DNA from: Escherichia coli
Lineage (GTDB): Bacteria; Pseudomonadota; Gammaproteobacteria; Enterobacterales; Enterobacteriaceae
Strand: one strand, 5' to 3'
NCBI RefSeq assembly: GCF_003334765.1
Contig: NZ_QOWT01000025.1
Length of the DNA stretch: 58,632 bases
Positions 21,709 to 21,908 of the stretch are shown here, piece by piece. A model generated the notes under the pieces. That model ran no database searches, had not been told where the DNA came from, and saw nothing but the letters and a program-made list of their open reading frames with translations. The first letter of the stretch is position 1; every line of letters begins with the position of its first letter. The position numbers were made by a program, and so were the translations under genes.

Positions 21709-21792
21709 TAGGCCTGATAAGACGCGGACAGCGTCGCATCAGGCATCTTGTGCAAATGTCGGATGCGGCGTGAACGCCTTATCCGACCTACA
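21709..21792. repeat. REP/BIME-type palindromic unit, copy 1
   Basis: TAGGCCTGATAAGACGCG..CAGCGTCGCATCAGGCAT...GTCGGATGCGGCG..AACGCCTTATC.GACCTACA; near-identical to copy 2 and internally palindromic. Confidence 0.8.
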
Positions 21793-21825
21793 AAAACAAA
21801 TTTATCAATGAGTTAGAAATCCCTT

Positions 21826-21908
21826 TAGGCCTGATAAGACGCGCCAGCGTCGCATCAGGCATCGTGTGCGAATGTCGGATGCGGCGAAAACGCCTTATCT
21901 GACCTACA
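21826..21908. repeat. REP/BIME-type palindromic unit, copy 2 (overlaps the mutT 3' end)
   Basis: Direct repeat of copy 1 with only a few substitutions/indels; its last 5 nt overlap the mutT stop region. Confidence 0.8.

Follow-up and report, generated by a model that had tools for sequence, protein, structure and literature searches.

A four-REP tandem repeat element between the convergent genes yacG and mutT of Escherichia coli: anatomy, allelic variation and use as an IS621 target

Introduction

What kind of element occupies the space between the convergent genes yacG and mutT of Escherichia coli, and what might it do there? The question was addressed for a stretch of 58,632 nt of E. coli DNA (assembly GCF_003334765.1, contig NZ_QOWT01000025.1, one strand read 5' to 3'), which is referred to as the window. 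An initial annotation of the window had placed two direct copies of a unit containing a repetitive extragenic palindromic (REP) sequence between the two genes. It had suggested that the element belongs to the bacterial interspersed mosaic elements (BIMEs), that it stabilises messenger RNA (mRNA) or terminates transcription and that it is a potential target for recombination or insertion sequences (ISs). The analysis supports the identification of the region as a REP/BIME, namely a four-REP tandem element of a well-known kind.

In E. coli, BIMEs are built from REP and inverted REP (iREP) pairs joined by short (S) and long (L) linkers, the REPs being marked by a 5' GTAG tetranucleotide and a mismatch in the stem (PMC3333891). 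The L linker contains a site for integration host factor (IHF), tandem copies are well conserved within a locus and vary in number between strains, and BIME-1 is stated to be single-copy (PMC3333891). Descriptions of REPs and BIMEs date back to the 1980s-1990s, and copy-number polymorphism and targeting by IS621 are already published as general features. The element is of a kind long known, it is identical in K-12 MG1655, and its additional features illustrate published BIME behaviour, not new biology. Its value is that of a clean, quantified example, in which recurrent unequal recombination between 84-bp repeats can be followed with mapped crossover points and 3% of sequenced strains have an insertion in the one exact bridge-RNA target. 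Furthermore, the stop codon of an antimutator gene is supplied by a REP tetranucleotide, which makes the locus a simple test bed for translational control by stop-proximal REPs.

Results

Two direct repeats contain four REPs

The presence of two near-identical direct copies, at 21709-21792 and 21826-21908, was confirmed by global alignment, in which 77 of 84 aligned columns were identical with a single 1-nt indel (77 of 85 with the tetranucleotide base 21708/21825 added). The local alignment score between the copies was 68, compared to 7.6 +/- 1.3 (maximum 14) in 3,000 shuffles. A repeat search returned an identical block (21709-21726 and 21826-21843, 18/18) followed by a block of 92% identity over 64 nt (21729-21792 versus 21845-21908). 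The start-to-start spacing shifts from 117 to 116 nt between these blocks on account of the 1-nt indel, which is located in the loop of the first hairpin (GGACAG versus GCCAG). The copies are separated by 33 nt (21793-21825), in agreement with the spacing of about 33 bp that had been reported.

Each copy had been described by a single palindrome, GCCTGATGCGACGCTG..CGCGTCTTATCAGGCC. This palindrome is present on the minus strand; on the plus strand it reads GTAG followed by GCCTGATAAGACGCG..CGTCGCATCAGGC, the reverse complement of which is the z-type REP quoted in the initial annotation. The description was however incomplete, as each copy also holds a second and different palindrome, a y-type REP of the form GTCGGATGCGGCG....CGCCTTATCCGAC followed by CTAC. 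The region consequently holds four REPs and not two. In each copy a 13-nt linker joins a z-type REP to a y-type REP of opposite orientation, which gives the element the alternating order z(-) S y(+) L z(-) S y(+) with linkers of 13 nt and 33 nt.

The first z-type REP spans 21708-21744, with GTAG at 21708-21711, arms at 21712-21725 and 21731-21744 and the loop GGACAG. Its minus strand reads GCCTGATGCGACGCTGTCCGCGTCTTATCAGGCCTAC, the palindrome is imperfect and the hairpin folds at -20.4/-21.3 kcal/mol. It is followed by the first S linker (ATCTTGTGCAAAT, 21745-21757), which separates the z and y REPs at their GCC/GTC ends by 13 nt, and by the first y-type REP (21758-21791), which consists of GTCGGATGCGGCGTGAACGCCTTATCCGAC and CTAC (21788-21791), has 2 mismatches to the y consensus and folds at -19.2/-17.4 kcal/mol. 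The 33-nt linker at 21792-21824, which resembles L, lies between the CTAC/GTAG ends of this REP and of the second z-type REP. The latter spans 21825-21860 (arms 21829-21842 and 21847-21860, loop GCCAG), has 1 mismatch to the z consensus and folds at -20.5/-21.4 kcal/mol. Its tetranucleotide has degenerated to TTAG (21825-21828) and is GTAG in strains A30 and FWSEC0002. The second S linker (ATCGTGTGCGAAT, 21861-21873), again of 13 nt, leads to the second y-type REP (21874-21907), recognised by its consensus match and folding and composed of GTCGGATGCGGCGAAAACGCCTTATCTGAC and CTAC (21904-21907). The GTAG/CTAC tetranucleotide is thus kept in three of the four REPs, at 21708-21711, 21788-21791 and 21904-21907.

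REPs of E. coli are imperfect palindromes of 30-40 nt that lie outside genes, typically at their 3' ends. Each of the four hairpins agrees with the E. coli REP consensus to within 0-3 mismatches or an indel in the loop, with 0 such matches expected by chance. Mismatches number 1-2 in two of them, and the others have an indel in the loop or 2 mismatches in the tail. The folding energies of the hairpins, which have an internal bulge or mismatch, are -17 to -21 kcal/mol, the exception being the second y REP read on the mutT-sense strand (-11.7 kcal/mol), and the region as a whole folds far better than shuffled sequence on both strands (z = -5.5 and -6.1).

The convergent flanks and the extension of the second copy over the mutT stop codon were borne out by the coordinates of the open reading frames (ORFs). 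yacG (21491-21688, plus strand; DNA gyrase inhibitor YacG, 65 aa) is in the ORF list and is annotated at the same locus in K-12 and other strains. Its TGA stop codon (21686-21688) lies 19 nt upstream of the first REP GTAG and 23 nt upstream of the stem of that REP. mutT (21904-22293, minus strand; 8-oxo-dGTP diphosphatase, 129 aa), likewise in the ORF list and annotated in other strains, ends in a stop codon that is the complement of 21904-21906 (CTA on the plus strand). The element sits between the two stop codons, with just the 4-nt CTAC tail and the next base reaching into mutT. As copy 2 ends at 21908, the overlap amounts to 5 nt, of which three are the stop codon and two belong to the final Leu codon.

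The element belongs to a dispersed family and to the tandem class of BIMEs

REP copies were searched for in 5,426 complete E. coli genomes, a biased collection of isolates in which frequencies are not those of a natural population. As the initial annotation had anticipated for a REP, similar copies were found elsewhere in the genome, at a median of 17-19 megablast places per genome. The number ranged from 4 to 39 across all 5,426 genomes and was 24-26 in K-12-like strains. Within the 58.6-kb window the REP cluster is the sole one. An 821-bp segment around the element is 100% identical to genomes of the K-12 lineage, and its intergenic part is identical to NC_000913.3 (K-12 MG1655). The K-12 RefSeq record carries no repeat feature at this position but carries none at the well-known yaaX-yaaA BIME either, so that this absence is uninformative.

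The copies are 92% identical within the locus and alleles of one, two and three modules occur between strains, as found for tandem BIMEs that vary in copy number. The element is accordingly assigned to this class, as a BIME-2 or an 'atypical' BIME, and we consider the explanation as a whole, comprising the BIME class, the anatomy, the history and the 3' untranslated region (UTR) function proposed below, to be highly probable. It was not filed as a BIME-1, a single y-L-z pair, because it has four REPs, extra S linkers and a variable copy number. Binding and cleavage by DNA gyrase have been reported for BIME-2 and atypical BIMEs (Espeli & Boccard 1997, in the form cited in PMC2817692). The proximity of the present element, which may share this property, to a gyrase inhibitor gene is regarded as no more than coincidental.

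Both modules were recognised by the Rfam model naRNA4 (RF02564), at 78.4 and 77.8 bits on the minus strand, relative to a gathering threshold of 59.5. The alignments cover the full model (positions 1-77 of 77) for both modules, the plus-strand scores of 52.9 and 51.7 fall below the threshold, and the two modules are the sole naRNA4 matches in the window. In the alignment the y and z hairpins are identical to those of the model and the linker has the same length and a different sequence; likewise, the first S linker equals the unpaired linker of the model in length and differs from it in sequence, and the first z hairpin matches the z hairpin of naRNA4. The model was derived from the y-S-z modules of REP325, a BIME-2 array between yjdM and yjdN in K-12. 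The present element has the same type of module, in which 13 unpaired nt connect a y hairpin to a long z hairpin (GCCUGAUGCGACGCU..GCGCGUCUUAUCAGGCC). In both elements the modules are repeated directly in tandem, the copies are well conserved and the location is a 3' UTR. They differ in that REP325 comprises six modules instead of two, in the sequence of the S linker, in the joining of modules by a 33-nt linker with an IHF-type core at the present locus and in position, as REP325 lies inside an operon whereas the element described here lies between convergent genes and overlaps a stop codon. The z hairpin is the same as in REP325, where it has been named Z2, and this long form of z also adjoins L linkers elsewhere. 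The first label given to the element, z1 with the arrangement 'z1-S-y-L-z1-S-y', was withdrawn, as the naRNA4 alignment shows the same z hairpin in REP325 (Z2).

The Rfam scores raise the question whether the modules are genes for naRNA4-like RNAs, that is, nucleoid-associated non-coding RNAs that, with the protein HU, would connect DNA cruciforms and compact the chromosome. The modules exceed the gathering threshold, roughly 80% of REPs are transcribed, and a two-hairpin naRNA together with HU condenses DNA in vitro (PMC4550694). The Rfam model is however in effect a generic y-S-z BIME module, so that the score reflects family resemblance and not function, and a promoter scan found no promoter-like site in or near the element. 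In addition, a 2026 study with overlapping authors found REP325/naRNA4 to be without measurable effect on nucleoid compaction or REP-REP contacts and recast it as a 3' UTR regulator (bioRxiv 10.64898/2026.03.23.713779). As that preprint finds no role in nucleoid compaction, we rank the naRNA-gene reading low and regard it as very improbable for the yacG-mutT element.

The 33-nt linker resembles a diverged L linker

A 61-nt query composed of the y tail, the linker and the z tail matched once per genome, at this locus only, in 1,871 of the 5,426 genomes (blastn). The candidate explanation that the 33-bp spacer is a dispersed BIME motif was rejected on this basis, since a junction found once per genome and only here marks the sequence as locus-specific. 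The linker contains a putative IHF site, TATCAATGAGTTA (21803-21815, plus strand), which is a perfect match to the IHF core consensus WATCAANNNNTTR. The core is again perfect in a divergent E. coli allele (L005, TATCAACATGTTA), the linker of which is otherwise different, and it is identical in the linker of Escherichia whittamii.

A query made from the junction of the divergent allele also matched the y-linker-z junctions at ettA-nadS, yaaA-yaaX and preA-mglC, and the linker of the window aligns in register with the linkers of these three loci at TCAAT...GTT. The E. whittamii linker showed strong similarity to that of ettA-nadS (z = 5.7). In BIME-1, or RIP-RIB, elements such as those at yaaX-yaaA and ettA-nadS, y, an L linker with an IHF site and z are arranged in the same geometry as 21758-21860 of the window. 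CTAC/GTAG ends face an A/T-rich linker of about 30 nt, the TCAAT...GTT core is in register and the IHF consensus is perfect. The two differ in that the linker of the window is locus-specific and weakly similar to canonical L and in that the pair in the window is flanked by further REPs via S linkers and varies in copy number. A position of L between the GCC 'head' ends of REPs was rejected, as the other loci show L between CTAC/GTAG ends, as here. On account of the geometry, the core and the intermediate form in E. whittamii, we conclude that the 33-nt linker is probably a diverged L-type linker. Judged by its core motif, it may be bound by IHF.

Modules have been lost repeatedly by recombination

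Comparison of the region across strains, which had been proposed as a check for differences in copy number, revealed alleles with one, two or three modules. The allele of the window, with two modules, was found in 1,871 genomes (34%), and a second two-module allele with a different linker (FDAARGOS_1287, L005) in approximately 263 genomes at >=95% identity (about 5%). At least three modules were present in 58 genomes, in which a synthetic linker-module-linker query was fully covered. Strain A30 has three modules, the middle one of which is chimeric, with a z loop of the copy-2 type and a linker and y REP of the copy-1 type; this is the product expected from unequal crossing-over. Around 60% of genomes carry a single module and are 116 bp shorter at the locus, as estimated from 22 of 40 evenly spaced rows and also by subtraction.

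The one-module alleles are heterogeneous. Those of C311, EBJ001 and S19-651 are pure copy 1, while SD134209 has a z left arm like that of copy 2 of L005. Z226-7 combines the left part of an L005-type copy 1 with the right part of a window-type copy 2, and GF60 and 54214 combine the L005 left flank with L005 copy 2. Since the crossover points differ among these alleles, at least three independent deletions are implied. The element recombines between its direct repeats and modules have been lost repeatedly, which turns the recombination target that had been suggested into an observed one.

In order to extend the comparison to other species, a codon-degenerate pattern for the 3' end of yacG was used on species-representative genomes. 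E. whittamii was the only other species recovered, and the comparison thus covers E. whittamii, with E. albertii, E. fergusonii and Salmonella outside it. The pattern matches the window and K-12 exactly, yet the species-representative scan returned E. whittamii alone. It resembles the window in the number of modules, two, and in the linker core, and its first z REP is truncated. As a second Escherichia species carries the element, it is shown to be old. Because E. whittamii also has two modules, two modules are most likely the ancestral state and a single module the derived one. The opposite history, a one-module ancestor with a later insertion, was rejected, as E. coli has two divergent two-module alleles, E. 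whittamii has two modules and the one-module chimeras differ from each other.

The truncated first z REP of E. whittamii (L011, 11683-11706) is cut to its right arm, with around 32 nt (CCGCACGTAGGCCTGATAAGACGCGGACAGCG in E. coli) absent. The deletion fuses GTCTGATG straight to TCGCATCAGGC and a short new hairpin remains. The left side of this fusion is a REP-arm-like stretch, TGTCTGATGC, that in the window lies at 21693-21702 on the plus strand and was found in an inverted-repeat search to be complementary to 21736-21745; in E. whittamii it is joined directly to the right arm of the first z REP. The stretch is possibly the remnant of an older REP. An aberrant two-module allele was observed in strain BS-04 (L006, 390-620). 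Its module next to yacG is garbled (GTGGGGTGGGGGGGC...; GTGGGGTGGGGGGGCTTC...) and is followed by an altered linker (TTTCTCACTGAGTGAAATACTTG), and the module next to mutT resembles copy 1. This allele is either an assembly error or a real rearrangement and was not used as evidence.

The first z REP is a used IS621 target

The suggestion that the element is a potential IS target also proved correct. The wild-type target of IS621 is ATCAGGCCTAC, with a CT core (PMC11208160). An exact 11-bp match to this target, with the CT core, is present at 21708-21718 on the minus strand, where it is empty in the window and is the single exact match in the 58.6 kb. The second z REP has one mismatch to the target (ATCAGGCCTAA) and the y REPs have 2-3, so that just one of the four REPs is a good IS621 target.

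In strain S19-651 (L004, 215-1500) IS621 is inserted at the foot of the first z REP, with the junction CACGTAG|IS621|AGGCCTGATAAG. The insert, of 1,277 bp between the duplicated AG/CT, is annotated as an IS110-like IS621-family transposase. A query joining the yacG end, the REP foot and the IS621 end showed the locus to be occupied in 181 of the 5,426 genomes (3%), a count of genomes in which one clone and several independent insertions are not separated. The first z REP is therefore a used IS621 target and not merely a potential one. A preference of IS621 for sites outside the palindrome, at the 3' side of the REP, has been published (Choi et al. 2003, summarised in PMC3184786). The present case resembles other REP targets of this IS110-family bridge-RNA recombinase in its exact 11-bp target and in insertion outside the palindrome (PMC11208160; PMC3184786), and shows nothing unusual.

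A REP tetranucleotide provides the stop codon of mutT

On the mutT-sense strand the end of the gene reads ...CGT CTG TAG GTCAGATAAGGCG..., where TAG is the last three bases of the REP GTAG. The hairpin of the second y REP starts at the base next to the stop codon. It folds at -17.0 kcal/mol on the plus strand, with a G.U pair, and at -11.7 kcal/mol on the mutT-sense strand, where the C-to-T change responsible gives an A.C mismatch and hence the weaker hairpin. The copy-1-type hairpin that one-module alleles place at the mutT stop is stronger, at -17.4 compared to -11.7 kcal/mol in the K-12-type allele.

In E. whittamii the mutT stop codon (TAA) is at the same position within the REP tail. In the E. 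coli strains O157:H7, FDAARGOS_1287, GF60, S4, 54214 and O145:NM the tetranucleotide is mutated (CCTACAG to CATACAC), as seen at L003 560-610 (O157:H7 F6294), L005 and L017-L020. The annotated MutT of these alleles has 132 aa (399 nt) instead of 129, ends in ...KRVYVG and terminates at a TAA or TAG made by the REP stem arm (TTATCC/CTATCC). The REP thus acts as a back-up stop for mutT in the stop-mutated lineages. A further disruption of mutT was observed in strain DTU-1 (L002, 925-1700; 'in vitro laboratory'), in which IS1A interrupts the gene, annotated as two pseudogene halves, the insertion lying outside the REPs. This is presumably a mutator genotype in a laboratory-evolved strain.

Ribosome stalling and reduced translation have been reported for REPs at <16 nt from a stop codon (Liang et al. 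2015, summarised in PMC12306157). In comparison with the stop-proximal REPs described there (Liang, Rudd & Deutscher 2015; e.g. the nrdAB REP), the mutT hairpin follows directly after the stop codon and is inside the 16-nt limit, with the difference that the mutT stop itself is part of the REP GTAG. The yacG stop, 23 nt from the first stem, is outside the limit. By analogy, the y hairpin at +1 after the mutT stop would be expected to impede terminating ribosomes and to lower MutT output. A much more speculative extension, which we consider a long shot, is that natural BIME alleles might set different levels of the antimutator MutT through REP-induced ribosome stalling and transcript stability. 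The alleles in question would be those with one, two or three modules, those with a weak (-11.7) or a strong (-17.4) stop-proximal hairpin, those with a 132-aa stop-loss MutT and those with or without IS621. If this were true, a repetitive element would serve as a heritable, recombination-driven dial on the A:T-to-C:G mutation rate.

The allelic variation described above also bears on a different explanation, according to which the element is selfish or neutral repeat DNA that is kept and reshuffled by the REP-associated tyrosine transposase (RAYT), TnpA-REP, and by homologous recombination and has no selected role for yacG or mutT. The copy number of 1-3, the chimeric modules, the recurring losses and the lack of a second module in most strains all agree with it, and both features that TnpA-REP requires in order to bind and cleave (PMC3333891), the GTAG and the mismatch in the stem, are kept in three of the four REPs. 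On the other hand, no inspected allele, that of another species included, is without a module, the mutT stop has remained within the tail of the y REP in both E. coli and E. whittamii and the IHF core is perfect in three otherwise diverged linkers. The retained module, the stop position and the IHF core suggest some constraint, short of proof. A purely selfish or neutral element is for these reasons considered possible though rather unlikely; it would in any case be compatible with 3' UTR effects of the same element.

Discussion

Proposed role in the 3' UTRs of yacG and mutT

The preferred reading of the element, a tandem BIME with a function in mRNA, takes up the role as mRNA stabiliser or terminator that had been suggested initially. 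By analogy with REPs studied elsewhere, the element would be transcribed as the 3' UTR of both convergent genes, and its hairpins would block 3'-to-5' exonucleases in both 3' UTRs. They could in addition cause partial, probably Rho-dependent, termination, such that neither transcript would run antisense into the other gene. Such a role would fit the REPs between convergent genes that have been published. Partial Rho-dependent termination and stabilisation have both been attributed to REP325, and expression is higher in convergent pairs with a REP between them (bioRxiv 10.64898/2026.03.23.713779). yacG and mutT appear in the supplementary tables of this preprint only as unaffected genes in a REP325 deletion. 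A literature search, which did not reach several classic REP papers, returned no paper treating mutT, yacG and REP together.

The hairpins could alternatively form a classical bidirectional Rho-independent terminator for the two genes. They are stable and GC-rich on both strands, and 78 REPs are located within 306 mapped bidirectional terminators between convergent genes (bioRxiv 10.64898/2026.03.23.713779). A scan for intrinsic terminators was however empty for the spacer 21689-21903, with no U tract following any hairpin on either strand, and most REPs are without poly-U and are at most partial Rho-dependent terminators (bioRxiv 10.64898/2026.03.23.713779). A classical intrinsic terminator is therefore improbable at this locus.

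The empty terminator scan also weighs against the preferred reading, as do several other results. REP-terminated genes show no general difference in mRNA half-life (bioRxiv 10.64898/2026.03.23.713779), on account of which stabilisation is treated here as context-dependent. The approximately 60% of complete genomes that are without the second module and linker show that this part of the element is dispensable. The match to the IHF core is on its own not significant across the window, in which 4 such matches were found compared to 2.3 expected. The similarity of the linker to three bona fide L linkers is weak (z = 0.7-2.8, the value of 2.8 being that with ettA-nadS). As regards the label, the choice between BIME-2 and atypical BIME depends on the subtype of z, which is z2 in BIME-2 and mixed with z1 and L in the atypical class.

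Other features of the window

The DNA of the window is K-12-like E. coli, with coaE, zapD and yacG on the plus strand and mutT and secA on the minus strand among the nearby entries of the ORF list. In the mutT-secA intergenic region, the Salmonella small RNA (sRNA) family STnc40 of Rfam matched 22308-22377 on the minus strand with 84 bits, compared to a gathering score of 45, and a terminator-like hairpin at 22357-22382 adjoins this match. Further matches above threshold were to tp2 sRNA (10323-10436, plus strand), the leucine operon leader (49616-49765, plus strand), SgrS (55745-55971, minus strand) and the thiamine pyrophosphate (TPP) riboswitch (57728-57827, plus strand), none of which is unusual in this region of the E. 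coli chromosome. PssrA ('plasmid-encoded Shigella sRNA A') matched 28024-28113 on the minus strand with 105.5 bits, relative to a gathering score of 69. The match spans the junction of two minus-strand ORFs of 420 aa (28093-29355) and 383 aa (26881-28032), which judging from their size and position are ftsA and ftsZ. A chromosomal location is odd for this family, which is described as plasmid-encoded.

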